The notes below the pieces were generated by a model, which did no database searches, was not told the DNA's origin, and saw nothing but the letters and a program-made list of their open reading frames with translations. Shown piece after piece: positions 2,253-27,760 of a stretch of 34,811 nucleotides of DNA; position 1 is the stretch's first letter; each line of letters opens with the position of its first letter. The translations under genes and the position numbers were made by a program. The stretch lies in NCBI GenBank assembly GCA_964388035.1, contig CAYLZE010000049.1, positions 1 through 34,811 of the forward strand, written 5' to 3'. Source of the stretch: an uncultured archaeon. Lineage in GTDB: Archaea > Asgardarchaeota > Lokiarchaeia > Sigyniarchaeales > SOKP01.

Positions 2253-2930
2253 TTACAGTCTTAATTGTTCCAATCTATCCTTCAATTCTCTCAAGATGTA
2301 TTGTCGGAATTGAGATGCATCAAAACGTCCTGAATTGAACTCATAAGGTTCTAAAATTTTTTCGCGGATTCTCATATCAGCTTCTGCTTTTGCTGCTCCT
2401 AAACATACACTATAAAAGTAATAAAACAGAGCGGGTGCCTTAACCGATTTTATTTCTTCTCGATCTACAGCATCTTGTAATAACTGAATGCCTTGTTTAA
2501 TAAACTCAAAAGGGCGATATGATTGTTCTAATTTGCCTTCTTTTTCAGAAGGAGGAGCTGGAACAAAATTCATCATTTGAAATCGTTTATAATTTGAGCT
2601 TGCAAATTCTAAGTATAATTCGGCCCATTTTATGCAAAAATCAATGAAATCTCCTTCATGACTCTCAACTAGTTCATTAAATTCATCTTGATAAGCTTGA
2701 TAATGTTTCATCCTAACGGCAATCCACAATTCTCTCTTGCTTTCCACATAATTATAGAGATTGGCTTCAGACATGTCCAGTCGCCTGGCTAATGCTCGCA
2801 TTCCGAAGCCATAAGGTCCTCTTTTTACGAATAAATCCATGGCTTCATCCAATATTGCATCAAATTGTGCTTCTTTATTTTCTCCTCTCGCTCTCTTCTT
2901 AGTTTTAATTTTCTTTACCATTTTAAACAA
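2253..2930 (-). CDS. TetR/AcrR-family transcriptional regulator
   Basis: ILDEAMDLFVKRGPYGFGMRALARRLDMSEANLYNYVESKREL is a TetR HTH. The start may be the ATG at 2921. Divergent from the radical SAM gene at 3309. Confidence 0.92.
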   Translation of the reverse strand: MFKMVKKIKTKKRARGENKEAQFDAILDEAMDLFVKRGPYGFGMRALARRLDMSEANLYNYVESKRELWIAVRMKHYQAYQDEFNELVESHEGDFIDFCIKWAELYLEFASSNYKRFQMMNFVPAPPSEKEGKLEQSYRPFEFIKQGIQLLQDAVDREEIKSVKAPALFYYFYSVCLGAAKAEADMRIREKILEPYEFNSGRFDASQFRQYILRELKDRLEQLRL

Positions 2931-3230
2931 CCATAGATGGTGCTCAATTTCCTTTAATCAATTTTACAGGAAATGATTCAGTATTATTTTCCTAAATCGT
3001 GGGAATAGGGGGTGATTTAATCTTCAATAATAATTAAGTTTAACTGATTTGGTAATTATGCCATTTTTTAAATGACACTAATAAGCAAATATCCTATAGA
3101 TTTTAAGAATCTTACGATAAAACAGTATTTCTTTAGTTTTATAACCATTTAAGTTTAAAATTCAAAAAAATAAAGAAAATAAAATTTAATTTATATTTGT
3201 ATTCAGGAATAAAAAAGAGGTTTCGAAAAG

Positions 3231-3248
3231 AGGGAAGATTTTTATAAA
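3231..3248 (+). promoter_or_regulatory. Putative archaeal BRE/TATA promoter for the 3309 gene
   Basis: Purine-rich AGGGAAGA followed by TTTTTATAAA, about 60 nt upstream of the GTG start. Confidence 0.4.
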
Positions 3249-3308
3249 ACTGATATTTTTTCTTTTTAACGAAAATTTATCGGTTAAAAAATAAATTATT
3301 GAACTATC

Positions 3309-4790
3309 GTGAAAATTGCCTTAATTAATCCTAGCCCAATTTTAGGAGAAGGAGAACATTTTTATGGACAAAAATGGCCCCCCCTTGGAATATTGTTATT
3401 AGGGACAATCTTGAAGGGGCAAGGACATCAAGTTTACTTGCTGGATCAAGCGAGTACAGAATGCAGCAATGAGAAATTGCTAAAATGGATAAAAAGGGTC
3501 GATCCAGAACTATTAGGATTTTTGACCATGACTGTAGGATTTTTATCAACGATTAAAATATCTGAAATGGTAAAGCAGTGGAATTCAAACATTAAAATTG
3601 TGTTAGGTCATTATCATCCCACACTTTGTGATGATAAAATTTTAAATAAATATCATCATCTTGTAGATTATTGTGTTAGGGGAGAAAATGAATATATTCT
3701 TTCTAATTTGATAAATTTCTTGGAAAAAAAAAATGGGGAGGAGCCTAAGGATATATTAGGTCTCAGTTATTATTTTAACGGAAAATTTAAACGAAATCCC
3801 GATTGTCCTGTAAATAAAAATTTGGATAATTTACCTTTCATTGATCGCTCTTTAATCAATTTTCCCTATCGACAGAATTTAGCCGGTATTGAATTAATGG
3901 ATTCAAAATTAGCTACTACCTTTTTTACTCGTGGTTGTCCTTATGGTTGTAGTTATTGTGCGGTGTCAAAATTTTCAAATAGACAATATAGGTCTAAAAC
4001 TCCCGAGAAGTTAATAGAAGAATTTGGTTATCTAAATTCAAAAGGATATTCTGAAGTTGCTTTTGTAGATGATAATTTTTCATTTAATCTTAAAAATGTG
4101 CTCACATTTTGTAAATTGTTACGGAAAGAGAATCTCGACATGGATTGGCACGTTGAAATGCGTGTGGATAGAGTTTCGAAGCAGTTATTTGAATACATGG
4201 TATCGGCCGGTTGTAAATCGGTAAGTTTTGGAATCGAAAGCGCTAATCAAAGAATCTTAGATTATTACAATAAACGAATCACGCCTACTCAAGCTCTCAC
4301 GGCAATTAAGAAAGCTAAAGAAGCAAAAATGAATTTTATAATCGGCTTATTCATGATAGGTGCCCCATTCGAGACGATAGCCGAGTGTCAAAACACTGCA
4401 AACTTTGCTTTGAAATCAAACGTGGATTATTTCTTTCTGAATGTGGTAGAAACTTGGCCCGGAATTCCAATGTGGGATGATTTGGTATCAAAAGGATTAA
4501 TTAACGAGAATGAACGGTGGGAAGCTTCCACTAGAGTAATGGATTTAACCCATACGGAAGCAGAAAGGCAGAAGATTTTGGATCTAATTACACAAACTTA
4601 TCGGGAATATATTTCTCTTAGTCGAGTAGGTTGGTTGTTCAAGACCATCCCTGATTTAATATTGAACTCGTATAAAAGACGACTTAGTTTGAATTTTCTG
4701 AAACACATGAGAACGGGAGCAAGGACTTTTGTGAGATTAAGAAATCTTAGATTATCGGGATTTGGAAAATATACAATCGATGATAAATGA
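3309..4790 (+). CDS. B12-binding domain (class B) radical SAM enzyme
   Basis: N-terminal cobalamin-binding domain (LINP...PPLG...LGHYHPT...RGE); RGCPYGCSYC (CxxxCxxC), VDDNF, FGIES, FMIGAP. GTG start. Confidence 0.93.
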   Translation: MKIALINPSPILGEGEHFYGQKWPPLGILLLGTILKGQGHQVYLLDQASTECSNEKLLKWIKRVDPELLGFLTMTVGFLSTIKISEMVKQWNSNIKIVLGHYHPTLCDDKILNKYHHLVDYCVRGENEYILSNLINFLEKKNGEEPKDILGLSYYFNGKFKRNPDCPVNKNLDNLPFIDRSLINFPYRQNLAGIELMDSKLATTFFTRGCPYGCSYCAVSKFSNRQYRSKTPEKLIEEFGYLNSKGYSEVAFVDDNFSFNLKNVLTFCKLLRKENLDMDWHVEMRVDRVSKQLFEYMVSAGCKSVSFGIESANQRILDYYNKRITPTQALTAIKKAKEAKMNFIIGLFMIGAPFETIAECQNTANFALKSNVDYFFLNVVETWPGIPMWDDLVSKGLINENERWEASTRVMDLTHTEAERQKILDLITQTYREYISLSRVGWLFKTIPDLILNSYKRRLSLNFLKHMRTGARTFVRLRNLRLSGFGKYTIDDK

Positions 4791-4857: not shown

Positions 4858-5613
4858 TTATTCTATAACAAGATTCTTGAGAGTAATGAACTCAGCTTTA
4901 GAAGATATAGCTTTTTTAATAAAAGCATTTAATTTTAAGATAAATTGCTCTCCGGTATTAATCCATCTATCCGGTCTGAATAGGAGATTTTTAATCTTAT
5001 CCGCCCTGCTCATTCTTAAAAGAAGTAATTTTTTCATGTTAACAGCTTCCCAAGGATGAAAATCTAAAATGATGAGATTTTTTTTAAAAATACTTCTCTC
5101 CACCAAATTATAGCTTAGATTTAATCTAAAAAACATGGTGTAATCTGAAGGAGGAAATTCAACAATTTGATTGTTATATATCTGATAAAAATGTAAGTTT
5201 TTTAAGTTTCTTATTGAAGAATCGTAATGAAATCCTAGATTACTTAATATTTTAAATAAAAATTTTGGAGGTCTTAAATAAGGTGCTCTAAATCCAATTA
5301 TCTCCGATCTATTACAAATATCCTCTAAGAGTTCTTTGTTCTGATTGATTATATCGTATATTTCCTCAATACTTAAATGATTTAATCGTTCATGATTGAA
5401 ACCATGACAAGCAATCTCATGATCGTTTCGTTCAATTAATTTAATAAGTTCTGGATACCATTTAGCTACATTTCCCGTACAAAAAAAAGTACCTTTAATG
5501 CTATATTTATCCAGAATTCGTAAAATCTTTACTAATCCTGATTTTATACCAAAATCTGTATTTAGAATGTTTGGCAGATCTCTTTCAACATCAAAGGTTA
5601 GTGCAATTTTCAT
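4858..5613 (-). CDS. Polysaccharide deacetylase (CE4/NodB family)
   Basis: LTFDVE, GTFF, HEIACHGFNH, GFRAP, YDSS and FHPWE motifs. Confidence 0.9.
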   Translation of the reverse strand: MKIALTFDVERDLPNILNTDFGIKSGLVKILRILDKYSIKGTFFCTGNVAKWYPELIKLIERNDHEIACHGFNHERLNHLSIEEIYDIINQNKELLEDICNRSEIIGFRAPYLRPPKFLFKILSNLGFHYDSSIRNLKNLHFYQIYNNQIVEFPPSDYTMFFRLNLSYNLVERSIFKKNLIILDFHPWEAVNMKKLLLLRMSRADKIKNLLFRPDRWINTGEQFILKLNAFIKKAISSKAEFITLKNLVIE

Positions 5614-5760: not shown

Positions 5761-6531
5761 TTAATCATCCTTTTTTGCCAATTCAGAATAAGTGCTTTTC
5801 ATTGAAAAATATTGATTAATTCTTGTCATGCTTCGTTGAAAAGATAGATGCCTTCCGCTCGTTAATACCGAAATGAAATTAAGAGTTTTTATTTTTCCTC
5901 TGTGCATTTTTCGAATCAAATATATTAAAGAATCTGAGAAAACTTTATCAATTCCTAATGAATTTGGAGGCTGTTTAAATCCACCTACTTTAAAAAATAT
6001 ATCCCTCCGGACTATAATATTGCAACCGGAAAGCTCTGGATATCCTAAAAGGGTTTTAAAAAAATAATACATGTGCATGAAGAAATTTTGAAAGAAATAG
6101 GTGGTAATAGTGAATTTTATTGTATTACATAATTTTAAAGAGAGTGCTTTTCCATCAAAATATTTAAATCTGGCGCTACAAGCAAGTAGATTATCATCGT
6201 TTGCGAATATTTTAGCAATTTTATGTAAAAATAATGGTTCTATTAACGTATCGGCATCTAAAAAAAGAATTAATTCACCGGTAGTTTTTGTCATGCCATA
6301 ATTTAGTTGGTTAGCCTTGCCTTTTTGCGGCGATATGTACACTTTAGCGAAATTTTTGGAAATATCTACGGTGTTATCTGTACTTTGTCCATCTATAACT
6401 AAAATCTCAAATGGTGTTTCGCAAATTTGATTTATTACTGCCACTAGCACTTCTTTTATATTATATTCCTCATTATAGGTGGGAATTACTACAGAAATTT
6501 TTGAGATATTAGTAGTGTTAATTATCTTCAC
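5761..6531 (-). CDS. Glycosyltransferase family 2 (soluble, single domain)
   Basis: SVVIPTYNEE, IDGQSTDNT, GKANQLNYG, FLDAD, GGF. GTG start. Confidence 0.92.
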   Translation of the reverse strand: MKIINTTNISKISVVIPTYNEEYNIKEVLVAVINQICETPFEILVIDGQSTDNTVDISKNFAKVYISPQKGKANQLNYGMTKTTGELILFLDADTLIEPLFLHKIAKIFANDDNLLACSARFKYFDGKALSLKLCNTIKFTITTYFFQNFFMHMYYFFKTLLGYPELSGCNIIVRRDIFFKVGGFKQPPNSLGIDKVFSDSLIYLIRKMHRGKIKTLNFISVLTSGRHLSFQRSMTRINQYFSMKSTYSELAKKDD

Positions 6532-6588: not shown

Positions 6589-8454
6589 TTAGATCTGCCA
6601 CGTTTCAAAGAACTTTGAAATTACATCACATGCCAACTTAGGAGAACCATCTGGTTTAATTAAACCAAATCCTTTTAATTCGTCATCTTTCCATTCATGA
6701 ATGATTATCCCATTAACGAAAATATCTTTCTTTAATAGTTTAAATACTTCAGAAAATGCTTTAGATTGAGCTTTTTCATCATATTCTAATTGAGAAGAAT
6801 TCTCATAAAATTGGATTGGCATTGGTCCGAATTGAATTGGATTTGGTACGGTTTGAAATCCTAATTCTGAGATAATAACGGGTTTTTTAAAATTCTTTAA
6901 ATATTGAACGTGCTGCTTAAAAAATTGAGTTGCTCGATAAATAGGACTAAGTTTAAGCGTTTTTACTTTTACACCAGGTAACAATTCCATGTATTTTGAA
7001 AAGACGTCACTAAAATAAAGATTACAACAAATAATATCGAAGTGTTTCCACGGTACAATTCTAGTTTCCCAAGAACCGCACGCATACGATACTATGCCAT
7101 TGAATTCTTCCCGGACTTTTTTGGATAAATTTTCTAAATAACCCGTGAGTTCATTTTTTTCTTTTCCAATTTTATCAAGTTTTAGGAGGGGTGTACCGGG
7201 AACACCGGGAGTTAATTCTAAAAGAGAAGGAGTAAATTGGGAGAAAAATTCTTCATTAAATCTATTAACATGACCAGATTTGTCATCACTAAGTTCTAAA
7301 CTTAACTCATTTCCGATACAAAAAATATCAACTCCTGCCTCCCGAGCTTTTTTTGCATGCATCAAGCAAAAATCTTCAAATTCCTCGTATGTTAATGAAG
7401 CATCTAATTGTGGTTTATCAAGTCCTTCAGGATAGACGTATTTTGGAGATAAAATAACGTTAAGTCCGAGCTCTTTAGCCACGGAAACAAGATCATAAAC
7501 ATTACTTTCTGGTTTCATGGCATCAAGCCGGATGGTATTAATGTTCATGGTTTTTATTGCATTTTTCAATTGCGCTTTAAATTCACGAGGATTTGTTGGG
7601 ATCCATCCCATCGATTCATGTAGAAAATGGATACCCTTAAAAAGTCCATAAACACCCGCAAAAGCATTAATGCGTTTTAATCCTTTTTTAAGAAAGAGAT
7701 CCACGAATCCGGGGAACATTTGAAATGGTCTGGCAGTCCATCCCATCAATTCTACGGTATTTACTTTACCTTTTTTTAACATTTTGAAAATTTTATCTTG
7801 ATCCTTCGGGTTATTAATGCCGGGACCAATGATATTAAAATAGCGTCCAATCTGGTGAACCGTATGAGCATCATCTGATCCTAGAATAAACATTTGAGGA
7901 CGTAATTCCAAAAGATATGAACACATAGAATTAAGAAAAGGGGGTAGATCGGCGTGGAAATACTCAATTCCATCAAACTGGAACTTTTTTATTTCTGAAA
8001 TTTTTAACCCGCCAAATGTTCTAAAGATTCCTTCAACGGGATGAAAAGGATGAGCTATTACTGCTAAACCACCTTGTTCATGAGTTTTTTCGATAACTTC
8101 TTGAATGGGTATCTTTTCTCCCAGTTTTACTGGAATTTCAGCATCCAAACCATAAGAAAGAATATCCCCGTGCTCACTATCAACTTCTTCCGCACAGATG
8201 TATCCACATTGGGGGTACTTTTCTTTTATATATGCCCTGGCATGATCAGCCACTCTTATATTATTATGATCCGTCAATGCAATTAGATTTACTCCGGCTT
8301 TAACCAAGTGATCAATAACTTCGCGATATTCCGCCCCATCAGAAAAATTAGTATGATTATGTGAAGAGAAGATGAGATATCCTTCCTTCTTTAATTGTTC
8401 TAATTCATTTTTTGAAATTCTTCTAACTTCAGGTACTTGAATTCCATTAGACAT
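6589..8454 (-). CDS. Fusion of a PHP-domain metallophosphoesterase and a clan GH-A-like glycoside hydrolase TIM barrel
   Basis: The N-half has PHP metal ligands HNHTNFSDG, TDHN, EEV, AHP and GSDDAH. The C-half has NTIR, IGNEL (acid/base NE), VSYA...W...FDII, KPVIISELG (nucleophile E) and GFGL...KLA. Confidence 0.8.
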   Translation of the reverse strand: MSNGIQVPEVRRISKNELEQLKKEGYLIFSSHNHTNFSDGAEYREVIDHLVKAGVNLIALTDHNNIRVADHARAYIKEKYPQCGYICAEEVDSEHGDILSYGLDAEIPVKLGEKIPIQEVIEKTHEQGGLAVIAHPFHPVEGIFRTFGGLKISEIKKFQFDGIEYFHADLPPFLNSMCSYLLELRPQMFILGSDDAHTVHQIGRYFNIIGPGINNPKDQDKIFKMLKKGKVNTVELMGWTARPFQMFPGFVDLFLKKGLKRINAFAGVYGLFKGIHFLHESMGWIPTNPREFKAQLKNAIKTMNINTIRLDAMKPESNVYDLVSVAKELGLNVILSPKYVYPEGLDKPQLDASLTYEEFEDFCLMHAKKAREAGVDIFCIGNELSLELSDDKSGHVNRFNEEFFSQFTPSLLELTPGVPGTPLLKLDKIGKEKNELTGYLENLSKKVREEFNGIVSYACGSWETRIVPWKHFDIICCNLYFSDVFSKYMELLPGVKVKTLKLSPIYRATQFFKQHVQYLKNFKKPVIISELGFQTVPNPIQFGPMPIQFYENSSQLEYDEKAQSKAFSEVFKLLKKDIFVNGIIIHEWKDDELKGFGLIKPDGSPKLACDVISKFFETWQI

Positions 8455-8511
8455 TGTATATAGTTTTAAGTAATAAATACAATTTAAGATTTATAGAGAA
8501 TTAAAATATTA
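8455..8511. promoter_or_regulatory. Compact divergent promoter region
   Basis: Only 57 bp separate the divergent start codons. TTTATA lies at 8490-8495 on + and CTTAAAT at 8488-8482 on -. Confidence 0.5.
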
Positions 8512-9615
8512 ATGGATAGAATGAATAAAGGATTCATAATCTCATTTGGTTTCTTATTAATTAGTGCAATTGCGATAATTTTATTTATTATCAACAAGAT
8601 ATTTTTCCCTATATCTTGGATCGAGTCTTTAACATATTATGTGGAATTCTTTTTACTATTAATTTTCTATGATATCAGCATTTACTTTTATGGGGTTAGT
8701 TTAATTGCTTATGTTTTGCTATTGCCGCTATTTGTATTGGGATATAATTTATCAAAAACCAAACAATTAACGGGTTCAATCTTATATGTGTCAAGTTTAT
8801 TTGGATTTGCTTTTATCACATTCATTATTATTAATTATAACTACGTCGGACTCTTATTTAATGTAGATTTATCCCTAACAACGCGGCTTAGCCTTATTTT
8901 GCTTTTTTTACCGGTAAATTTTGCTTTTAGTTTCGTATTATTTTTAGCTTCTATTGATCAATTTATTTTTCTTAAGGATTTAGTCCAAGCACGTAAGGTA
9001 TGGAATCATAAATTGTTAAATTACGACATTGAAACGAAAGGAAAAATGACGTATATCAACATTGAGACAAACGAACACATCTTTACCCCCATTCCGATGC
9101 TAATAATCGCAAAATATCTTCAAACCGAAGGATACTCGATAGCTTGGTTTGTCAAAGGGGCATTTAATCACTTATTCTCACTAATTATAACTTATTTGAC
9201 GGGATGGCCACGAGCCCGGAATGTATTATTTCGTTTATTGGGATTGAAAATTGGAGATAATTGCCATATCTCTGAAAGAACAGTTATTGATCCTCTTCTT
9301 CCAGAATTAATAGAATTTGAAAATGGAAGTGGGTGTGGAATTGGCGTCAAGCTCTTCACACATAATGCCATGAACATCAAACATGGAAGTTTTAGTTTCG
9401 GACCCATAAAGGTCTGCGAAAATGCAAGAATAGGAGCATATTCTCTTATTTTACCGGGAGTCACCATCGGAAAAGGCTCGATAATTGGAGCAAATTCCGT
9501 AGTAACGGAGGACATTCCACCTTACTCAATCGCTCATGGTTCTCCTGCAAGAATTATACGTGAAATGACAGAAGAAGAAAAGGAAGAAGTAAATAAGCAG
9601 TTTGAATTAATATAA
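8512..9615 (+). CDS. Membrane-anchored hexapeptide-repeat (left-handed beta-helix) acyltransferase
   Basis: About 4-5 hydrophobic helices in the first 150 aa. Then LLGLKIGDNCHI...FTH...IGAYSLILPGVTIGKGSIIGANSVVTEDIPPYSIAHGSPARII, the maltose/galactoside O-acetyltransferase-type C-terminus. Confidence 0.85.
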   Translation: MDRMNKGFIISFGFLLISAIAIILFIINKIFFPISWIESLTYYVEFFLLLIFYDISIYFYGVSLIAYVLLLPLFVLGYNLSKTKQLTGSILYVSSLFGFAFITFIIINYNYVGLLFNVDLSLTTRLSLILLFLPVNFAFSFVLFLASIDQFIFLKDLVQARKVWNHKLLNYDIETKGKMTYINIETNEHIFTPIPMLIIAKYLQTEGYSIAWFVKGAFNHLFSLIITYLTGWPRARNVLFRLLGLKIGDNCHISERTVIDPLLPELIEFENGSGCGIGVKLFTHNAMNIKHGSFSFGPIKVCENARIGAYSLILPGVTIGKGSIIGANSVVTEDIPPYSIAHGSPARIIREMTEEEKEEVNKQFELI

Positions 9616-9688
9616 AGGAAGATAAAAAATTAATAGCATGTATTGATTAGCATTTTCACCAGATCCTTAGAATAAAATAGGTATAGAA

Positions 9689-11137: not shown

Positions 11138-11211
11138 TGAGGAGAGCCTAATATATTCTTTCTAATTTTATAATAGAATCAAGTATAAAAAAATAATTAA
11201 ATTTAGGATAA

Positions 11212-14265: not shown

Positions 14266-14294
14266 GAGTTAACAAAATTAATCCTATTTTGATC

Positions 14295-16675: not shown

Positions 16676-16717
16676 ATTCTAAAAAGATTAGGATTTCACA
16701 AGATCCCCTTTAAGGAT

Positions 16718-18299: not shown

Positions 18300-19088
18300 A
18301 TGAATGTGAAAATAAAAAATTGGAGTGCTTACATTTTTCAAATAGGTTTATTTTCTATTTTCACCATAATTTTAATTTTTATTGAGTTTCGCTGGGTAAT
18401 GGAAATATATTTTCATCCATATCTTCCTGAATGGAATCTACCCATAAGAATCGCCATTCCCCCCGTTCAAGAAATCCTTTTATCAATAGGATATATCGCC
18501 TTTTTCATTTTTAATTTCGGCATAGCAAGCTTTTCCATGTATGTTTTTATTTTTATCCTTCACGTATTAGATTCAAATTTTGCAAGAACAGTGCCAATAT
18601 GTGCTTTTGCAATCGATTGCTCCTTAGTAAATTTATTTTTATTTCATTTCATTTTTAATAAAAAAATATATTTCGATTATTTCATGATATATTTTCACCT
18701 CCACCTTTTATATCAAATTCCAGCTTTAATTTCTCAACTCACGGGGATAATTATATTTATTAATTTCTTTACACTCTTGATAAACTTAAGGTTTGGGATG
18801 CAAGGAATAAAAAATAGACGACTGCTTGGCTCAAATCTCTTAACTGATTTAATTCATAGTCTATTAATAGTTAATGGCTTTATAGCACTTATTTTTTTCT
18901 TTTACTACCTAACGGTCTTAAGCATTAACATAGTTGGTTTTATTTTAGGTTTGACCGCTGCAATCATTTTGGTTGTTATTATTAACAATTTTCTGAAAAG
19001 GAATAAATTCTATTATCCAATTCAAGCTATTGCTGATTTTAGAAAAGAGAAACTTGCACATCACCCTCAAGAGGGAGATTCCGATTAA
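18300..19088 (+). CDS. Hypothetical polytopic membrane protein
   Basis: 262-aa non-overlapping ORF with about 6-7 hydrophobic segments. Confidence 0.7.
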   Translation: MNVKIKNWSAYIFQIGLFSIFTIILIFIEFRWVMEIYFHPYLPEWNLPIRIAIPPVQEILLSIGYIAFFIFNFGIASFSMYVFIFILHVLDSNFARTVPICAFAIDCSLVNLFLFHFIFNKKIYFDYFMIYFHLHLLYQIPALISQLTGIIIFINFFTLLINLRFGMQGIKNRRLLGSNLLTDLIHSLLIVNGFIALIFFFYYLTVLSINIVGFILGLTAAIILVVIINNFLKRNKFYYPIQAIADFRKEKLAHHPQEGDSD

Positions 19089-19310
19089 TTTACTGATTTT
19101 GGAAGATTAGAAATTTTTCTCATAAATGTATCGAATTGTAAAATCAAATATTTATTTATCAATGGGGGCGTTAGAAGAAAATGGAAAATTTAGAATAAAA
19201 TTCCTTGAATCCATTGAATTTCTAAATTTCTATATTTTTAGAAAATATCTTTTTATTTATAAATCAAGAATTTATTAATTCTTAAAAATGATAAATAGAA
19301 ATAATAAAAT

Positions 19311-20750
19311 TTAGAACCGTTTTTCGCTCAATGAATCTAAAACCCTTAGCGATGAAGGGAAATCTTTAGCAAGATTTTTGAATTTATCTCGACGATAAGG
19401 ACTCATAATTGATCTCGTAAATTGCTTGAAAATAAATTTTGGTCTTGCTAATGAATAAAAGTTTTTATATGTTCTTTTAATTATGTCTTCAAGAGCCTTT
19501 GCTTTAACCCCATAAAATGGTAGGTCAGGTACTCGAACACCCGTCGCCCAATATTTTTCTTCATCTAATTTATGTTGATCGATTAACTCTTGCCATATTT
19601 TGATTCCGGGAAATACTTCAAAAATATGAAACATTGCGTAATCGATATCTAAATTTAGTGCAAGTTTAATAGTAAGTTGGATATCGCTAATTTTTTCTAT
19701 GGGAGAACCCATAATGAAAGAGGCCATCAAGAGATCGATTCCACCTTTCCTTGCTTTTTTAATCGCGTTTTTACATTTCGCGGGAGTGATGTTTTTTTGA
19801 TAATAGTCGAGAATTCTTTGACTCCCGCTTTCCATGCCAAAAAATATCGATTTAAAATTAGCTCTATTCATGTATTCATACATTTCCCTTGTTCCTTCGA
19901 CTCTTCCTTCACAATGAAAGATTAAATCAATCTTTTCTTTTCTAATATTTTTGCATATTTCAATTACCCATTGCGGCTTTAATGTGAAATTATCATCCAT
20001 TACCATTATTTCTCGATATCCTTCAGCTTCTAATAGTTCTAACTCTTGGATTATATTATTTACCGATCTATATCGCCAGCTTCTTTGATTAACTGAACAA
20101 AACCTGCACTGAAAAGGACATCCACGACTCATAATTATGGTTCCTGATTTCTGCTCTGAAAGACTTATACCCCCAAGAGACATTTTATATTCATTGTTCT
20201 TGAGCAGCTTACGATCTGGAATTGGAAACTGATCTAAATCTTCTTCTAATTCGCGTGGAGGAGTTGATACAATTTTATCTCCTTCTCTATAAGAAATACT
20301 CTTAACTTCTTTGTAATTAGGTGTATGATTTTTAATCAAATTTAATAATTCTACCAATACATGTTCCCCTTCGCCACAAACACAAAAATCAATAAAATTG
20401 TATTTACTTAATATTTTATCAGCACAAACCGTGTGATAATTGCCAAGAATAGTAATGATATTTGGATTCCATTCTTTTGCTATCCTTGCAATTTCAATTC
20501 CTGAGAGAAAGGATCTGGTTAAAACGGAAATACCTATCACGTCTGGGTCCTTTTCTTTTATCCAACCTAATACTTGAGAAAAAGTGTAATTTGTTGCTGC
20601 ATGATCTAAAATAGATATCTCATATCCTTCTTCTTTCAATACACCGGCAATATATAGCAATCCTAAGGGCTCTGCAAAACCTGAAAACATTGGTCTGAGC
20701 TCTTTTTTATCCAATTCCATTGGAACAGGATTAATTAATGCAATTTTCAT
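19311..20750 (-). CDS. B12-binding domain (class B) radical SAM enzyme
   Basis: MKIALINP, EPLGL, LGNYHT, GEGE, SRGCPFQCRFC, MDDNF, FGMESG. Confidence 0.93.
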   Translation of the reverse strand: MKIALINPVPMELDKKELRPMFSGFAEPLGLLYIAGVLKEEGYEISILDHAATNYTFSQVLGWIKEKDPDVIGISVLTRSFLSGIEIARIAKEWNPNIITILGNYHTVCADKILSKYNFIDFCVCGEGEHVLVELLNLIKNHTPNYKEVKSISYREGDKIVSTPPRELEEDLDQFPIPDRKLLKNNEYKMSLGGISLSEQKSGTIIMSRGCPFQCRFCSVNQRSWRYRSVNNIIQELELLEAEGYREIMVMDDNFTLKPQWVIEICKNIRKEKIDLIFHCEGRVEGTREMYEYMNRANFKSIFFGMESGSQRILDYYQKNITPAKCKNAIKKARKGGIDLLMASFIMGSPIEKISDIQLTIKLALNLDIDYAMFHIFEVFPGIKIWQELIDQHKLDEEKYWATGVRVPDLPFYGVKAKALEDIIKRTYKNFYSLARPKFIFKQFTRSIMSPYRRDKFKNLAKDFPSSLRVLDSLSEKRF

Positions 20751-20828
20751 TGTTTTTCCACTTACAACATGGATTTAATAACATTTCTTATTCTAAGAAA
20801 AATTGAAATTAATATTAATGATTCATTA

Positions 20829-22334
20829 TTAATTATCATACGTCCCAAATCCTCTAGGTTTCGATTCTCGAAAGGTAGTTATCGCATTCATTGCATCTTT
20901 GAAATTTGTCATTATATTGCCCGCCATATTAAGCATGAATTTACTTCTTATCATTCGGAGCATCATTTTAAGAAGAAATATTTTCTTTCTTTCAAATGAA
21001 AAAAACCGCTGATAGGCATTACGAATTTCCTCTAGCATGAGCTCTCTCTCTTTAGGAGATAATAAAAAGTCAATGACTCTTGTTGTTGTTTCCCAACGCT
21101 CCACGTCATGAATTTCATTACCCACACGAGTTTTTACAATGTCATGGGCATTAATAATCCCTTTTGAAATATAATCATCCCAAAACTGAATTCCCGGAAA
21201 GATTTCGACCACGTTAAAAAATGGCACATCTATATCTGAGTTTATAGCGAATTCAATTGTATTTTTTACTTCATCTAATGTTTCAGTAGGTGCTCCTAGC
21301 ATGAATAATCCTACAATGAGATCAATTTTTGCTTTCCGTGTTTTCTTTATAGCTTCATTAAATTGTGCAATTTTGGTTCTCTTATTGTAAAGATTTAGAA
21401 TCCGTTGGTTTGCGGTCTCAAATCCATACCACATTGACTTGCATCCTGATTTTCTCATCCAATTTAACATCTCTTGAGAAGTTTGATCTACACGTCCATC
21501 AGTATGCCAATCGATATCTATCTTTTCTTTTTTAATTAACTCGCAGATCTTGATTGTTCGTTTGGGAAGTAAGGTAAAATTATCATCAACAAAATTCAAT
21601 TGCGTATAACCTTGTGCTTGGATAAAGAGCATTTCTTCTACGATATTTTCAGGACTTCTCATGCGAAATTGGCGTTTTGCAAATTTGGTACAAGCACAAT
21701 ATGCACAATTAAAAGGACACCCTCGGGAAGAGATAATGGAAGTTAATTTTGATTTTGAAAAGTCAAACCCAGAAAAATTCCATTTATAATCATAATCTAT
21801 TAGCGTTCTATCGGGAAATGGGAGTGCATCTAAATCCTTGATTAAAGGAGCATCTGGAGTGATAATTATTTTATTATCGGCATTCCGAAATGCTAATCCG
21901 TTAATATTTTCTGGTAGACTATCATTCTGTTTTTCTAAAAATTTGCATAATTCTAAGAAAGTGAATTCCCCCTCCCCTCTAATGCAATAATCAACATATT
22001 TTCCGTATTTCTTAAGTATATTTTCAGCTTCCATAGTAGGATGGTAATGTCCTAAAATTACTTTTATGGAGGGATCAAATTCTTTAATATATTTGATAAG
22101 GTTGATCGCGGGCAGAAATGCCACCGAAAAAACAGATATTCCCAGAATATCAGGTTTTATCTGTTTGATCCAGCTTAAAACTTTATCTTTATCATAAAAT
22201 TTAGCTGCAGCGTCAAGTAATGAAACTGAATATCCGTTTTCTTTTAAAATTGTACCTATATATAAGATACCTAATGGAGGCCAAGGAGAATAAATCTTGG
22301 TTTCCAAGCTCGGGTTAATTAATCCTATTTTCAA
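20829..22334 (-). CDS. B12-binding domain (class B) radical SAM enzyme
   Basis: MKIGLINP, WPPLG, LGHYHPT, RGEGE, SRGCPFNCAYCAC, VDDNF, YGFET. TTG start. Confidence 0.93.
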   Translation of the reverse strand: MKIGLINPSLETKIYSPWPPLGILYIGTILKENGYSVSLLDAAAKFYDKDKVLSWIKQIKPDILGISVFSVAFLPAINLIKYIKEFDPSIKVILGHYHPTMEAENILKKYGKYVDYCIRGEGEFTFLELCKFLEKQNDSLPENINGLAFRNADNKIIITPDAPLIKDLDALPFPDRTLIDYDYKWNFSGFDFSKSKLTSIISSRGCPFNCAYCACTKFAKRQFRMRSPENIVEEMLFIQAQGYTQLNFVDDNFTLLPKRTIKICELIKKEKIDIDWHTDGRVDQTSQEMLNWMRKSGCKSMWYGFETANQRILNLYNKRTKIAQFNEAIKKTRKAKIDLIVGLFMLGAPTETLDEVKNTIEFAINSDIDVPFFNVVEIFPGIQFWDDYISKGIINAHDIVKTRVGNEIHDVERWETTTRVIDFLLSPKERELMLEEIRNAYQRFFSFERKKIFLLKMMLRMIRSKFMLNMAGNIMTNFKDAMNAITTFRESKPRGFGTYDN

Positions 22335-22360
22335 TTTTTTTTTACACCAATAAGTTTCTA

Positions 22361-23806
22361 TTAAAATAAATCCGGAGGGTTATTGATTAATTTTATAAAT
22401 TTGTCCATATCTTTAAAATTAAGGTGGTTTAAAATGATTTCTCGCCGGTATTTACTTATCAAAGTTCGGAAGGCAGCTTTAGCCAAATATCCCGGTCTAA
22501 AAAATTTCAGATGGAACTGATCCTTTATTATTTTAAAGATCATATCGCGTTTCATTTTTGCAATCGGCAAATCGATCAAGTCCACACCCGTTTCCCAATA
22601 TTTGTTTTCATCTATTATTTTATTGTTTATTAAGTCTTTGAAGATTTGAGTTCCTGGTAACGCTCGTAAAAAAATAATATGGGGAAAATCGATATCCAAT
22701 TTTGAAATAAATTTGAGGGTATCAATTGCTTCTTCATAGGTTTCATCTAATGCACCTATTATGAAGGATCCAATAATGAACTTGAATCCCGCTTTCCTTG
22801 CATTTTTTACAGCAATTTCACTCATTTGAGGCGTAATTCCTTTTTTGTAATAATTCAAAATTCGCTGTGAACTACTTTCGATTCCATACATTAAGATCTC
22901 AAAATTGGATCCATGCATCAATCGTAGTAAATCAATGGAGCTATTATTAACTCGTCCATCACAGATAAAAGAAATATCTAACTTTTCCTTTTTAATTTTC
23001 CTACATAGCTTGATAACTCTTTTTTTATTTAACGTGAAATTATCATCTACAAAAAGGATTTCACGATAGCCTTGATTGTTCAAATAAATAATTTCATCAA
23101 AAATATTATTCACTGACCTTGTTCGCCAAATTCCCCGAGAATAAGCAGAACAACCGCAAAATGTGCATGAATATGGGCATCCTCGAGAAGAGACCATCGT
23201 GGCAAATTTTCGTTTTGTTACATCAATACCACCAATTCGATTTCTGTACATGTCCGGAATTAATGTTCTATCGGGAAAAGGCAATAGATCAAGATTCTTT
23301 ATATAGGAGTGATCGGGATTTTCTTTTATTTTTCCATCATTTCGATAAGTTATACCTTTAATGTCACTAAGATTTGCATCTGTAGCTAGTTTCTCTACGA
23401 GTTCTGCAAATACTTGTTCGCCTTCTCCTCTTACACAGATATCAATTGAACTATAGTTTTCAAGAATTTTTTTTGAATAAAATGTTGCTAAATAGTTACC
23501 CATAATGATAATCAAGTTAGGATTCCAGATCTTTAAAGTTTCAGAAATTTCTTTAGCATTTTGGAAAGAAGAGCATAAAATGGAAAAGCCCACTATATCG
23601 GGATCTTCTTTTTTAACCCAGTTTACTACCTCCAAATTGCTATATTTAAAAGCGGCTTGATCGAGAATTTTCATGTCATGCCCTTTATTTCGTAAAGAAG
23701 TAGCCAGATATAAGAGCCCTAATGGAGGAGCAGAAGAATAAAATAATGTTTCACGCTTATTTTCATGGGATATCGACGGACTAGGGTTGATAAGACAAAT
23801 TTTCAT
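22361..23806 (-). CDS. B12-binding domain (class B) radical SAM enzyme
   Basis: MKICLINP, PPLGL, MGNYLAT, RGEGE, SRGCPYSCTFCGC, VDDNF, YGIES. Confidence 0.93.
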   Translation of the reverse strand: MKICLINPSPSISHENKRETLFYSSAPPLGLLYLATSLRNKGHDMKILDQAAFKYSNLEVVNWVKKEDPDIVGFSILCSSFQNAKEISETLKIWNPNLIIIMGNYLATFYSKKILENYSSIDICVRGEGEQVFAELVEKLATDANLSDIKGITYRNDGKIKENPDHSYIKNLDLLPFPDRTLIPDMYRNRIGGIDVTKRKFATMVSSRGCPYSCTFCGCSAYSRGIWRTRSVNNIFDEIIYLNNQGYREILFVDDNFTLNKKRVIKLCRKIKKEKLDISFICDGRVNNSSIDLLRLMHGSNFEILMYGIESSSQRILNYYKKGITPQMSEIAVKNARKAGFKFIIGSFIIGALDETYEEAIDTLKFISKLDIDFPHIIFLRALPGTQIFKDLINNKIIDENKYWETGVDLIDLPIAKMKRDMIFKIIKDQFHLKFFRPGYLAKAAFRTLISKYRREIILNHLNFKDMDKFIKLINNPPDLF

Positions 23807-23926
23807 TAAAATTTAACTCTCTTCTAAGGGTTTACTCGTTTCTAATTTTTATTTTTTTAGTGTGATGTGAACATTAATAATTCATGTTTAAATTTAAGTT
23901 GTTTTTTTATTATAGTTAAAATCCTT

Positions 23927-25225
23927 TTAATAAATCCAATTAAATAGAGAAGAGCAACTCTTACCTTGCGCATTTTCCAAGCGACCTTTTATTCGGAAAG
24001 TAGCCCCTTGATAACTGCATTCGGGGCATTTGCTATTTGAAATCAATTCGACAACATCGTCAATCAGAACCGCTTGATTCACCGATCCATTCACACCAAA
24101 TGGCGTGATGACTTCTAATAATCCACTTTCTCCATTATTTACCGGTTCTAAAGACTCTTGATCTCTTACTATTATTCGTGTTGTATCCGGGCAATGATAA
24201 ATAAAATCTTGATACTTTTCAGACCAATGTCCTCCAAAAAGGGTGGGGCCTTCCGTAAAAGCATAGATATCTGCAATTTCATTTGGTTTGATATTGAATA
24301 ATTTTTCAAAAGTTTTAATGAATTTGACTTTATCGACATTTCCCATCTTGGCTTCTCCTTTAACACCATCCCAACCACCGCCCCCACAGCCAACTATTGC
24401 TTTACCATTCAGATCGTACGAGCGATTTTCCTTTAACAATCGCTTTTCGAACATGTTATTCATTAAGAGCGGACTGCCACCAAAAATAATTTTACTGACT
24501 TCGATTTCTTTCCAATATCCCGTTTTTAAAATAGAATTTATCATTTTTAACATTTTACTAACATCTAAAACAAAGGCCCCTCTTATCGAGAGAGTAGAAA
24601 GTATTGCTTTAATCGTGCTAAAAAATTTGGCTTTTACTAGGTATTCTTCATGTCCGTAATATTCCCAAGGTTTATTCATACAGGCTGTAAAATAGCGAGT
24701 TTTTTTTAGATACGGAAATCCTTTTAGATTCTTTCTAACCATTAAGGAAAAGGTTAAACGATTCGGTGCAAAGTTAAAGACTAAGCATCTCTTTGAATTT
24801 TGCTTTAAATCTTTCCATCGAAAAAACTCAGAAAAGACCTTTATTGAATTATATTGAAGTTGGTCAAAATCTTCTACAGTTCTGGGTACTATGGATGGAT
24901 CTCCTGTAGTAGATGAAGAGCAAGAAAAGAGAGCGATCTTATTCAAAGGAACTTTTAAAAGTGTTATCGTTAAATTATTAGATTTTTTATATATATTAGA
25001 GGGAATATATGGGATCTCTGATAAATCTTGAATTTTTAATTGATCTGGAACGGAGAATTTAAATTTCTCTACAAGTTTATTCCGATAAAGTTTACAATTC
25101 TCATTGGATAAAATAATTTGTTCCAGTATTTTTTTACAAAAATCCTCATCAGAATAATGGAGAGGTTTAAAATCAAAATATTTGGTCTGTAATTCCTCTG
25201 GTAAATAGTCCTTGAAGCTAAACAT
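23927..25225 (-). CDS. LuxE-like acyl-protein synthetase, copy 2
   Basis: IPYIPSNIYK, SSSTTG, GGGGWDG, DIYAFTE, RIIVRD, DD, FRIKGR and a terminal KSCSS. ATG at 25225 preferred over TTG at 25234. Confidence 0.85.
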   Translation of the reverse strand: MFSFKDYLPEELQTKYFDFKPLHYSDEDFCKKILEQIILSNENCKLYRNKLVEKFKFSVPDQLKIQDLSEIPYIPSNIYKKSNNLTITLLKVPLNKIALFSCSSSTTGDPSIVPRTVEDFDQLQYNSIKVFSEFFRWKDLKQNSKRCLVFNFAPNRLTFSLMVRKNLKGFPYLKKTRYFTACMNKPWEYYGHEEYLVKAKFFSTIKAILSTLSIRGAFVLDVSKMLKMINSILKTGYWKEIEVSKIIFGGSPLLMNNMFEKRLLKENRSYDLNGKAIVGCGGGGWDGVKGEAKMGNVDKVKFIKTFEKLFNIKPNEIADIYAFTEGPTLFGGHWSEKYQDFIYHCPDTTRIIVRDQESLEPVNNGESGLLEVITPFGVNGSVNQAVLIDDVVELISNSKCPECSYQGATFRIKGRLENAQGKSCSSLFNWIY

Positions 25226-25255
25226 GGTAAGCAACCATTTTGTAAGTATCCTTTT

Positions 25256-25333
25256 TTATGAAAGAACTTTCCACATATTTTTAAAAAAGAAAAACAAGAT
25301 TAGATGAAAAAACTTGTCCAAACTTTTTTCCAT
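25256..25333 (-). CDS. Candidate 25-aa hydrophobic micropeptide (MEKSLDKFFHLILFFFFKNMWKVLS)
   Basis: Read manually. The ATG is preceded by GAAGGAGA at canonical spacing, and the ORF ends 30 nt before the luxE-like ATG. No homology support. Confidence 0.3.
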   Translation of the reverse strand: MEKSLDKFFHLILFFFFKNMWKVLS

Positions 25334-25393
25334 AGAAATCTCCTTCTCGGAAAGCAAGATAATTCTTTGAACTTTTATTTTCTAAATTTATAT

Positions 25394-25404
25394 AAAAAAA
25401 AAAA
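25394..25404 (-). terminator. Oligo-T terminator candidate
   Basis: T11 immediately after the stop codon of the 25405..26757 gene. Confidence 0.5.
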
Positions 25405-26757
25405 TTAATTAGAGGATAGAGCTATTATTTCTTCCTCTTCTTTTTCAAATAACATTGGTGTCTTTTCCCACGACATTTCTTTAGGAAGTTGGAACTGATG
25501 TAAAAACATGAAGAGATGGATATAGCCACTTATCAAAAATAATAATAACACGCTATAATGTTTATCCCCATACTTTCTTATGGCATTAAATAAAAAGCCG
25601 AACTGGAAGAACAAACAAGAAAGAGTCCAAAATAATAGATAAAATTCCCCAATCAGAAAGTAAAATAGAGAGAACGCAATCACGATAGGAATCCAGGTAT
25701 CTAAATTTCCTAAGAGCATCATTGTCATATTTCGTGAGATGATAATCGATTTTCCATTTTTATCCCCTTTTTTCATTGCCATTAGTTGAGGCATGTCAAA
25801 TATAAATCCTGCTAACCACCGTGTACGTTGCTTGACCAAGATATCCCATGTATTTGGAACATATTCATAAATCTTTGCTTTGGGCGTAAAAAGTATTTTA
25901 ACTCCATCCAAGTTTAAGAGTACAGATAAATAAAGATCTTCTGTCATTGAATCTTCGTTAAATCCTCCATAATCCAAAAGACATTTAGTTCTGACTGCGA
26001 AATTTCGACCAAAGGAGTATGCTGAAGAACCTAACCGATTTTTTATTTCAAACGTTAATCCTCCACCAGAAATCATGGCATAATCAAGTAAAATTCCTTT
26101 GGTTAATGTATTCTCTTTCCAATTCTCTACCAATACGGGACCAATTACAGCATTATTTTTTTCCTCGTGGAATGGATTCATTAATTCTTTTAACGTGTAA
26201 GATTGCAAGATGCAACCAGCATCATAGAGGACAACGATTTCATTTTTTACATGTTTTAACCCATAATTCAATGCTGGTGGTTTTCCTTTCTTAGGGAGAT
26301 TTTCGGATAAAATTGTTATATCCAAATTTTCATGTTTATTCGCAAAAGATTTGCAAAAATCCAAGGAATCATCAGTTGATCCACTAATTATAAGAATTAG
26401 TTGAATTTTCTCTTTAGGATAATCTGTTTTAACAATTGAGTTCAAAGTTCTTTCTAATAATGTTTTTTCACTTTTCGAAGCTATTAAAATACTAATAGGG
26501 GTAGTATAAGAGGTTTTAATTCGATAACCGCTTCCAAAGGATGATAAAAAATGTATCCCGTAATAGAGTATTAAACCCAAAAAGAATCCTAATCCAATTA
26601 ATGGAAATATAACCCACCAATAAGTTAAAGGATTAGTAAAGAACAGATCTATTGTTCCTTTTACTCCGGATGGAAAGGAGGGAGGAAATATCAGGTGTAA
26701 TATTACATAAAATACCACTAATATTAGTCCGTAAAGTACAATTTTTCCAATTTTCAT
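25405..26757 (-). CDS. Membrane-embedded GT2 glycosyltransferase (cellulose-synthase-like)
   Basis: 2 N-terminal TMs; GKPPALNYGL, TED and QRTRW; C-terminal TMs and WEKT. Confidence 0.9.
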   Translation of the reverse strand: MKIGKIVLYGLILVVFYVILHLIFPPSFPSGVKGTIDLFFTNPLTYWWVIFPLIGLGFFLGLILYYGIHFLSSFGSGYRIKTSYTTPISILIASKSEKTLLERTLNSIVKTDYPKEKIQLILIISGSTDDSLDFCKSFANKHENLDITILSENLPKKGKPPALNYGLKHVKNEIVVLYDAGCILQSYTLKELMNPFHEEKNNAVIGPVLVENWKENTLTKGILLDYAMISGGGLTFEIKNRLGSSAYSFGRNFAVRTKCLLDYGGFNEDSMTEDLYLSVLLNLDGVKILFTPKAKIYEYVPNTWDILVKQRTRWLAGFIFDMPQLMAMKKGDKNGKSIIISRNMTMMLLGNLDTWIPIVIAFSLFYFLIGEFYLLFWTLSCLFFQFGFLFNAIRKYGDKHYSVLLLFLISGYIHLFMFLHQFQLPKEMSWEKTPMLFEKEEEEIIALSSN

Positions 26758-26824
26758 TTCTGCTCACCCATTTTTTTATCCGTTTTATATTGTATTTTTA
26801 ATATAATTCATATCGTTTTGAAAA

Positions 26825-27760
26825 TTAACCATTTTTATTTTCCATTGTTTTAAGTTGCTTCCAAATATAGCTACTAGATTGAAGAGAGGACATTACCATT
26901 ATAAATAGTAAAACGACTTGATAAATTAACATGCACCATGTTACTATCCCTCCATGAATAACCGACCAAATAGCAGCAGTAGTAGGATTAATTAGATAAG
27001 TTATCATCACGATAAAACTTGAAATACCATATATCAGAAAGAATGTAACCATGATTATAATTCTGGTAATCCTTTCTCCCGCAAATGGTTTTGTTTCAAG
27101 TAATCCTAATCCTTCATGTCTTGCTCTCATGTATTCATAGATAAAAATAAGTAATATGTTTGTCCAGACAATCCACGTGAAATCAAGACCAAGGCTCGGG
27201 ATGATCAAGAGGCTAGTAGGAACTAAACATACTAACATTAAAATATCACTAATTCGATCGATGATGTTATCTAACCAAGCTCCAGTTTTAGATTTGATAT
27301 TCAACAATCGCGCAATAGTGCCATCGATCCCATCAATTATTCCCGTAAATGCAACTAAAAAAGCAACGGGAAGAAATATAAATCCATAGAATGGTTGTTG
27401 CGAAATCAAATCTAAGGTTTGCCCTTCACTAGCTATAATGACGCCATAAAAGATAAAGAATGATAATATTAAGTTCATTATAGTAACTTTGTTGGGACTT
27501 ATACCCCACTTTATAAAAATCTTTGCACCCTTATATGTCATGGGCATGTAGAATGATCCAGAAGGATCTTTTTTCATTTGTGCGAATTGCTCTTCTAGTT
27601 TATGCCCCTGCCCATGATCTTTTAACCAATCTTTTATGAAATCATCCAAGCTCATGAGATCTTGTTTAGGTGCTGTTCTTGACCGACCAGCAAGTAATAA
27701 TATTATAAGGAAGCCTAGTAAAACTAAGGGAAATATAATTCTAAATATAATTTCTGCCAT
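26825..27760 (-). CDS. CDP-alcohol phosphatidyltransferase family protein
   Basis: ISPNKVT and the full signature DGIDGTIAR-x7-GAWLDNIIDRISD, plus YMRAR and ER..R. Confidence 0.93.
   Translation of the reverse strand: MAEIIFRIIFPLVLLGFLIILLLAGRSRTAPKQDLMSLDDFIKDWLKDHGQGHKLEEQFAQMKKDPSGSFYMPMTYKGAKIFIKWGISPNKVTIMNLILSFFIFYGVIIASEGQTLDLISQQPFYGFIFLPVAFLVAFTGIIDGIDGTIARLLNIKSKTGAWLDNIIDRISDILMLVCLVPTSLLIIPSLGLDFTWIVWTNILLIFIYEYMRARHEGLGLLETKPFAGERITRIIIMVTFFLIYGISSFIVMITYLINPTTAAIWSVIHGGIVTWCMLIYQVVLLFIMVMSSLQSSSYIWKQLKTMENKNG

Follow-up and report, generated by a model that had tools for sequence, protein, structure and literature searches.

What is made by a gene cluster in which five radical S-adenosylmethionine (SAM) enzymes stand among acid-activating ligases and membrane-bound sugar, acyl, and head-group transferases? 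The question is raised by positions 2253 to 27760 of contig CAYLZE010000049.1 (C49), the whole of which, 34.8 kb, was analyzed and is called the window here. We find that the cluster is real and that it probably encodes a membrane glycoconjugate pathway. It is a rearranging, patchy accessory island of one Lokiarchaeial family and not a chance neighborhood. Its core consists of a CDP-alcohol phosphatidyltransferase paralog (CDP-OH), a membrane-embedded, synthase-type family 2 glycosyltransferase (GT2b), and a LuxE/PaaK-type ligase (LuxE2). Around this core stand a hexapeptide (LbH) membrane acyltransferase, a small family 2 glycosyltransferase (GT2a), a carbohydrate esterase family 4 (CE4) deacetylase, a second ligase (LuxE1), and five class B radical SAM enzymes (rSAM1 to rSAM5). 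New here are the variant rich in radical SAM enzymes, an island-specific clade of these enzymes, the features of the orphan LuxE-type ligases, and the family-restricted, co-varying distribution of the genes.

The window belongs to a metagenome-assembled genome (MAG) of 5.47 Mb with ∼30% G+C and 96.7% completeness. Its host is a Promethearchaeota (Lokiarchaeia) archaeon: the orthologous loci found with the LuxE2 protein as query all come from Promethearchaeota/Lokiarchaeia MAGs, and the genome carries Asgard signature genes, including Roadblock and gelsolin domains. The Asgard affiliation that a preliminary description of this DNA had entertained only as an "if" is thereby established. Host DNA was detected in salt-marsh metagenome runs, and no RNA run was listed among them.

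Synteny and distribution of the island

Genes were called by Pfam, families were assigned by NCBIfam equivalog cut-offs, and transmembrane (TM) helices and signal peptides were predicted for the window proteins. Synteny was assessed in 46 orthologous loci from other species and on six long contigs that represent other genera of the family. The co-directional core CDP-OH/GT2b/LuxE2, with CDP-OH as its first gene, is found in 35 of the 46 loci, and GT2b is present in 40; many loci without the full core end at contig edges. Within 10 kb of the core lie the acyltransferase (29/46 loci), GT2a (27/46), and CE4 (20/46). At the genome level, 32 of 68 genomes of the family carry the CDP-OH paralog, with a single further occurrence in a second family; a search of 232 other Asgard genomes found none of the island type. 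The acyltransferase was detected in 49 of 120 genomes of the family, mostly those that also carry the CDP-OH paralog, and the two genes lie on one contig, 3 to 22 kb apart, in at least 20 genomes. Because synteny in the 46 loci is joined by this genome-level co-occurrence of both halves, we treat the genes as a single conserved island. The preliminary description had staked its shared pathway on co-location in relatives, and the genes are indeed co-located there; literature searches found no description of this gene combination.

The island is patchy even among close relatives, and the only other genome of the host's genus (G001) carries neither the CDP-OH paralog nor the acyltransferase. A 35% identical GT2b relative in another Asgard genome stands without the neighbors of the island; the gene linkage is thus confined to the family-level island. 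Logan contigs from three salt-marsh runs cover all bins from 8001 to 28000 in two of the three runs, at ∼5x, but these contigs of ∼1 kb are too short to establish long-range contiguity, which therefore rests on synteny in other assemblies.

Pfam recovered every gene that the preliminary description had named, each in its place, and the list below adds five zinc-ribbon/3-TM paralogs, two 7-TM orphans, and a 161-amino-acid orphan that it had not included.

26825-27760, minus strand: CDP-OH, CDP-alcohol phosphatidyltransferase paralog, 311 amino acids (PF01066, 44.7 bits)
25405-26757, minus strand: GT2b, membrane synthase-type GT2, 450 amino acids (Glyco_tranf_2_3, 104.9 bits)
23927-25234, minus strand: LuxE2, LuxE/PaaK-type ligase and anchor gene of the island (PF04443, 78.5 bits)
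22361-23806, minus strand: rSAM5, class B radical SAM enzyme (PF02310 and PF04055)
20829-22334, minus strand: rSAM4, class B radical SAM enzyme (PF02310 and PF04055)
19311-20750, minus strand: rSAM3, class B radical SAM enzyme (PF02310 and PF04055)
18300-19088, plus strand: u262, 7-TM orphan (TM prediction, no Pfam match)
16718-17956, minus strand: LuxE1, LuxE/PaaK-type ligase (PF04443, 98.8 bits)
15827-16675, plus strand: u282, 7-TM orphan (TM prediction, no Pfam match)
12068-15672, plus strand: five tandem zinc-ribbon/3-TM paralogs (Pfam zinc-ribbon matches, TM prediction)
11212-11697, minus strand: u161, 161-amino-acid orphan (no Pfam match)
9689-11137, plus strand: rSAM2, class B radical SAM enzyme (PF02310 and PF04055)
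8512-9615, plus strand: hexapeptide (LbH) membrane acyltransferase (Hexapep, 48 bits; five TM helices)
6589-8454, minus strand: PHP-GH113 fusion (Pfam and NCBIfam)
5761-6531, minus strand: GT2a, small GT2, 256 amino acids (PF00535, 106 bits)
4858-5613, minus strand: CE4 (NodB-type) deacetylase (PF01522, 79 bits)
3309-4790, plus strand: rSAM1, class B radical SAM enzyme (PF02310 and PF04055)
2253-2930, minus strand: TetR-family regulator (TetR_N, 41.5 bits), divergent from rSAM1

Accessory genes of the island in relatives include a sulfotransferase, UDP-galactopyranose mutase (Glf), a further GT2, an alpha/beta hydrolase, and small or other radical SAM enzymes, and genes for lipid-binding SCP2 and START-like proteins adjoin it. 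In eight relatives (L023, L027, L033, L046, L051, L057, L062, and L064) a prenyltransferase module abuts the core on either side; it comprises a U32 peptidase-like protein, SCP2, an ABBA (Orf2) aromatic prenyltransferase, two SPASM radical SAM enzymes, and two class B radical SAM enzymes, and looks like an oxygen-independent route to a prenylated aromatic lipid. This prenyltransferase/U32/SCP2 module was rejected as a component of the window, the host's copy being on contigs C138 and C139. Upstream of CDP-OH in 14 loci stands an MSMEG_0568-family radical SAM gene (287 bits, cut-off 304) with a gene for a 265-amino-acid double-zinc-ribbon protein (e.g., L033, 5401-6537). The host's copy of the former is on contig C35, and no match to the latter was found in the host genome.

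Enzymes of the island

In the CDP-OH protein, a linker of ∼60 amino acids joins an N-terminal TM helix to a multi-TM catalytic domain; ∼8 hydrophobic segments are predicted in all. It belongs to the CDP-alcohol phosphatidyltransferase family, with an intact Dx2DGx2ARx8Gx3Dx3D motif that is kept in 36 orthologs. Its best NCBIfam match is archaetidylinositol-phosphate synthase (AIPS/PIPS), whose cut-off of 180 bits it misses with a score of 72, and its sequence matches in PDB are AF2299, PIPS, and DIPPS. The genome encodes five other CDP-OH transferases, among them AGPS-like and ASS enzymes and two better AIPS-like ones (146 to 154 bits), along with a myo-inositol-1-phosphate synthase. Judged by its sequence, the island protein is a diverged addition to the AIPS/PIPS group, alongside these housekeeping copies.

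GT2b has two N-terminal and about four C-terminal TM helices and keeps the TED, QRTRW, and C-terminal WxKT-loop motifs. Its DxD motif has become YDAG in all 38 orthologs, the second Asp being replaced by Gly, and Ser takes the place of the first Asp in DDGSTD; relatives outside the family retain DAD and DGSTD. The AlphaFold2 (AF2) model (pLDDT 92.6) has BcsA, PcManGT, and hyaluronan synthases as its top Foldseek matches (TMq 0.50 to 0.58), and NCBIfam scores stay below the cut-offs for PgaC/IcaA (92 versus 422 bits) and NodC (32 versus 550). The family is small: a search of 1.84 billion representatives gave only 16 clusters at E ≤ 1e-30. In the third membrane enzyme, correctly labeled a membrane acyltransferase in the preliminary description, an N-terminal stretch of five predicted TM helices precedes the LbH domain; among NCBIfam models the protein comes closest to heptaprenylglyceryl-phosphate O-acetyltransferase (75 bits, cut-off 300).

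The two ligases share 40% identity (BLASTP 5e-81), and both exceed the PF04443 cut-off of 24.9 bits severalfold. The P-loop SSSTTGxPS (SSSTTGDPS in LuxE2), the YxFTE motif, and Cys427, eight residues from the C terminus, are invariant, including in the genome's LuxC-linked LuxE; by analogy with Vibrio LuxE, this Cys is the putative acylation site. LuxE2 has orthologs at 61 to 75% identity in ∼45 Promethearchaeota species. A sequence search of PDB with LuxE2 gave no match at E ≤ 0.01, and its AF2 model (pLDDT 83) has ClxA, PaaK1/2, BT_0428, EhpF, AjiA1, and NatL2 as nearest folds in Foldseek. Ligases of the ClxA, PaaK, EhpF, AjiA1, and NatL2 type adenylate aryl or small acids, and in ClxA, NatL2, AjiA1, and EhpF the adenylate is condensed directly with an amine or hydroxyl. 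The modeled LuxE2 thus has a PaaK-type fold nearest to aryl/small-acid ligases, which fits an amide- or ester-forming role. The NCBIfam LuxE equivalog gives the two ligases scores of 63 and 38 bits against a cut-off of 550, and PaaK cut-offs are likewise far from reached. No LuxC is encoded in the window, and the sole LuxC of the genome stands beside a third LuxE on contig C14; LuxE1 and LuxE2 are, by these comparisons, best described as orphan paralogs of true LuxE. In several relatives, LuxE1 orthologs or a third LuxE paralog group adjoin the membrane acyltransferase, and this direct adjacency suggests that an acyl-S-LuxE thioester could be the donor for the hexapeptide acyltransferase.

The canonical LuxE-LuxC pair on contig C14 (L079, 8203-11195) adjoins FIST, gelsolin-like, and Roadblock genes. 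It is common among relatives and hints that members of this Asgard family form fatty aldehydes or alcohols.

Among the remaining sugar enzymes, GT2a has canonical DGxSTD and DAD motifs, kept in 26 orthologs, and its gene is usually divergent from that of the acyltransferase. The CE4 domain begins at residue 3 and conserves HxxxH (HGFNH) and RxPY (FRAPY), while motif 1 reads TFDVE rather than TFDD. PF01522 at 79 bits, the His-His pair, and RxPY place it among CE4/NodB-type deacetylases, although it scores 57 bits against the NodB equivalog cut-off of 240. The PHP-GH113 fusion scores 48 bits for glycoside hydrolase family 113 (GH113; cut-off 27), a subthreshold 22 bits for PHP (cut-off 26.4), and 61 bits for the CehA/McbA metallohydrolase domain. 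These matches indicate a PHP-type metallo-phosphoesterase joined to a GH113-like glycoside hydrolase. The protein is cytoplasmic and a rare accessory: among six relatives examined, only G006 has an ortholog. No signal peptide or TM helix is predicted for CE4, PHP-GH113, the ligases, or the radical SAM enzymes, which places tailoring on the cytoplasmic side.

All five radical SAM proteins combine an N-terminal B12-binding domain (PF02310, 63 to 81 bits) with a radical SAM core carrying CxxxCxxC (PF04055, 71 to 92 bits), both above cut-off, and thus belong to class B; the three cysteines (C210, C214, and C217) show no variation across an alignment of 24 sequences, made up of rSAM1, rSAM3, rSAM4, rSAM5, and their relatives. 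Five of the ∼19 class-B-like genes of the 5.47-Mb genome fall within 25.5 kb, where ∼0.09 would be expected (Poisson tail ∼4e-8, a significance overstated because tandem paralogs are non-independent events), and the tailoring set of the island is unusually rich in these enzymes in this host. The preliminary description had given them several steps of its pathway. They are variable accessories: rSAM5, rSAM4, and rSAM3 follow LuxE2 at successive gaps of 120, 26, and 78 bp, and this triple stands directly after a LuxE gene in six complete cases and one truncated case among the 46 loci. Some class B enzyme is found in 28 of the 46 and a radical SAM enzyme of any kind in 39; radical chemistry is a recurrent, interchangeable tailoring layer, accessory rather than core.

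In a tree of all class B enzymes of the genome and the related loci, rSAM1, rSAM3, rSAM4, and rSAM5 form one island-specific clade. rSAM1 is sister to the rSAM4 group, and the f27 enzyme of the prenyltransferase module is sister to the whole clade. rSAM2 is a lineage apart; in all five other loci that have it, it occurs together with u161, between GT2a and CE4. An rSAM1 ortholog (69% identical) adjoins CE4 and PHP-GH113 in G006, the only genus with one among the six long contigs. No rSAM reaches any curated NCBIfam cut-off. The best models are BchE (cut-off 481) and HpnJ (578), with scores of 143 to 204 bits, and the HpnR, ladderane, Ta0216, and PhpK models score below these and under their own cut-offs. 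With all equivalogs so far from reached, none of the five falls in a characterized non-lipid family; placement in such families would have counted against the preliminary description. The best solved relative of rSAM4 by sequence is AprD4, a diol-dehydratase of aminoglycoside sugars, followed by TokK, OxsB, and CysS.

Among the remaining genes, those of the zinc-ribbon/3-TM family lie inside the island in 23 of the 46 loci, usually just downstream of a LuxE gene, and appear to travel with it. u282 is within the island in 10 of the 46 loci, and an Atlas feature search with it gave nothing usable. u262 stands between GT2b and LuxE in three other loci; no relationship between u282 and u262 was detectable. 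Atlas feature matches of u161 to bPH_3 clusters (0.91 to 0.94) offer a PH/GRAM-like fold as a weak lead. The TetR gene, which the preliminary description had counted as a cluster member, was rejected as island regulator, being absent from all 52 related loci examined, and the PHP-GH fusion is likewise absent from most genomes.

Two further observations concern the genome at large. The host encodes at least 15 small B12-binding proteins, which fits methyl-transfer metabolism, and one of its many genes for corrinoid proteins of ∼210 amino acids, on contig C66 (7966-8301), contains an in-frame TAG. In the window but outside the island, positions 29246-31198 encode a 650-amino-acid protein with two Ion_trans repeats (a two-repeat 6-TM channel), whose gene adjoins a P-type ATPase and is not kept with the island.

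A candidate cytoplasmic-face pathway and its rivals

The product we favor, with about even confidence, would be an acylated glyco-phospholipid or short lipoglycan made and variably tailored at the cytoplasmic face of the membrane. We infer the order of steps from enzyme families, topology, and gene order. The CDP-OH paralog would make a dedicated phospho-alcohol lipid from CDP-archaeol, with a head group most like inositol-phosphate, or might alternatively add a phospho-alcohol to the glycan. GT2b, with its BcsA/hyaluronan synthase (HAS) fold, would attach one or more hexose or N-acetylhexosamine (HexNAc) units, from which the cytoplasmic CE4 would take off an N-acetyl group. The LuxE-like ligases would adenylate a carboxylic acid and then either hold it as a thioester on the C-terminal Cys or transfer it directly to the liberated amine or to a hydroxyl. 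The acyltransferase and GT2a would add extra acyl and sugar groups, and the species-variable tailoring set—here five radical SAM enzymes and PHP-GH113—would methylate or rearrange the sugar or acyl part. The succession of glycosyltransferase, deacetylase, and ligase or acyltransferase is the logic of the phosphatidylinositol mannoside (PIM) and glycosylphosphatidylinositol (GPI), Nod-factor, mycothiol, and HpnI/HpnK/HpnJ pathways.

This reading draws on intact catalytic motifs, the conserved core, the co-occurrence of its genes, the extra CDP-OH paralog, and the glycan-type accessories of relatives. Since CDP-OH, GT2b, and the acyltransferase are integral to the membrane and CE4, the ligases, the radical SAM enzymes, and PHP-GH113 have no export signal, an extruded polymer fits less well than lipid-linked or oligosaccharide intermediates. 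The most economical product is still the one named in the preliminary description, a glycosylated phospholipid or another surface conjugate. Several points weigh against it. A membrane CDP-OH transferase can use soluble substrates, as DIPP synthase does, so that a soluble product is conceivable; both the fold of GT2b and its top family model (PgaC/IcaA) belong to processive polymer synthases; the DxD of GT2b lacks the second Asp; CE4, GT2a, and the acyltransferase are missing in a third to half of the loci, partly through contig ends; and no flippase or exporter was recognized. A more specific version of the product, which we think doubtful, is a GPI/PIM-like anchor built by non-homologous enzymes: an N-acylated glucosaminyl-(inositol)phospho-archaeol or lipoglycan, C-methylated or ring-contracted by the radical SAM enzymes and acylated by an LbH acyltransferase that a LuxE thioester would feed.

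The strongest competitor, if still somewhat unlikely, is a synthase-dependent exopolysaccharide of the poly-N-acetylglucosamine (PNAG), chitin, or hyaluronan type. GT2b would extrude a HexNAc polymer that is partly deacetylated, re-acylated, and trimmed, and CDP-OH would supply a lipid primer or a phospho-alcohol decoration. BcsA and hyaluronan synthases are indeed the best folds of GT2b and PgaC/IcaA its best NCBIfam model, its TED, QRxRW, and WxKT loop are kept, and the set of GT2, CE4, acyltransferase, and glycoside hydrolase mirrors IcaADBC/PgaABCD. But CE4, the hydrolase fusion, and the ligases have neither signal peptide nor TM helix and so cannot reach an extruded polymer, the ATP-dependent ligases and radical SAM enzymes must work in the cytoplasm, the PgaC/IcaA score is 92 against 422, and no PgaD/IcaD-like or export partner was identified. 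It is unlikely, in our estimate, that the island is instead a specialized-metabolite cluster, in which a PaaK-type ligase would activate an aryl or small acid—one that might be prenylated, hydroxylated, and methylated elsewhere—for coupling to an amino-sugar scaffold, giving a membrane-associated natural product or cofactor-like molecule. The nearest folds of LuxE2, those of aryl-acid ligases that serve benzoxazole, phenazine, and phenylacetate pathways, speak for such a cluster, as do the sister position of the f27 enzyme to the rSAM1/3/4/5 clade and the patchy accessory distribution typical of such clusters. The prenyltransferase module, which abuts the core in eight related loci and lies on C138/C139 in the host, cuts both ways, being absent from most loci and from this contig; moreover, three enzymes of the core are embedded in the membrane and belong to lipid or glycan families, and the accessories of relatives are mostly of glycan type.

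The emphasis of the preliminary description, in which LuxE activates a fatty acid that Grs-, HpnP-, or HpnR-like radical chemistry modifies at unactivated carbons before its insertion into a lipid, now looks improbable. In its favor, Pfam does place both ligases in the LuxE family, their C-terminal Cys is conserved, a 3-hydroxyacyl-CoA dehydrogenase fragment stands at the start of the contig, and archaeal lipid tails are known to be modified by enzymes of class B, of which Grs, Gmm, Cgm, and Ted are named examples (bioRxiv 10.1101/2025.10.20.683597). Nothing in the present comparisons, however, ties the island enzymes to tails: they are accessory and absent from most islands, HpnR, ladderane, and Ta0216 scores lie below those of BchE and HpnJ, all failing, and the best solved relative of rSAM4 is AprD4. 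With LuxE equivalog scores of 63 and 38 against 550, a PaaK-type fold nearest to aryl/small-acid ligases, and the real LuxE-LuxC pair elsewhere, fatty-acid activation by these proteins is unproven and its bearing on fatty-acid-containing archaeal lipids speculative; the question of fatty-acid lipids in Asgard archaea is not answered by the island alone. That the genes share no function at all, as a chance pile-up of paralogs and envelope genes, is scarcely credible. They do lie on both strands with zinc-ribbon membrane genes interposed, and TetR and PHP-GH113 are not conserved, but synteny in 46 loci and co-occurrence across rearrangements contradict such an origin.

Comparison with known systems

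We compared the island with PIM/GPI, HpnI/HpnK/HpnJ, Nod-factor, and mycothiol pathways as working analogies rather than memberships, because its enzymes are non-homologous to theirs or fall under the family cut-offs. With lux systems and other LuxE/PaaK-family ligases it shares the ANL P-loop, YxFTE, the PaaK-type fold, and the C-terminal Cys of LuxC-linked LuxE, but no LuxC, LuxD, or LuxAB adjoins the island ligases. Its likeness to PgaABCD/IcaADBC and NodC/NodB/NodL/NodH lies in a membrane GT2 with TED and QxxRW, a CE4 enzyme that is cytoplasmic like NodB, an O-acyltransferase, and, in relatives, a sulfotransferase. It differs from them in failing the PgaC/IcaA, NodC, and NodB cut-offs, in the change of DxD to DAG, in having no recognized PgaD/IcaD or NodA homolog, and in acylation that would use ATP-dependent ligases. 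The HpnI-HpnK-HpnJ hopanoid module and calditol synthase Cds resemble it in uniting GT2, deacetylase, and class B radical SAM enzyme in one locus. For each of the five island rSAMs, HpnJ ranks first or second among family models, yet at 149 to 187 against 578; HpnI scores 30 against 310, radical SAM enzymes are optional in the island, and its ligases, CDP-OH, and LbH acyltransferase have no hopanoid counterpart.

The mycobacterial PIM operon (pgsA1, PatA, PimA), like the island, sets a CDP-alcohol transferase beside a glycosyltransferase and acyl-handling genes, and the early steps of eukaryotic GPI synthesis (PIG-A, PIG-L, PIG-W) transfer N-acetylglucosamine (GlcNAc) and then de-N-acetylate and acylate at the cytoplasmic face. 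The island enzymes are not homologous to either set: it has GT2 for GT4, CE4 for LmbE/PIG-L, and a PaaK/LuxE ligase with an LbH acyltransferase for PatA/PIG-W, and its CDP-OH stays under the AIPS/PIPS cut-off (72 versus 180). Beyond these parallels, the island is a source of new class B radical SAM enzymes that stand apart in phylogeny and of LuxE-type ligases that are orphans. The joint presence of a phospholipid head-group enzyme, a glycosyltransferase of synthase type, ATP-dependent ligases, and numerous radical SAM enzymes in an island that is conserved but differs between strains points to a kind of membrane or surface glycoconjugate not yet described, for which one could search the lipidomes of salt-marsh sediments and enrichment cultures.

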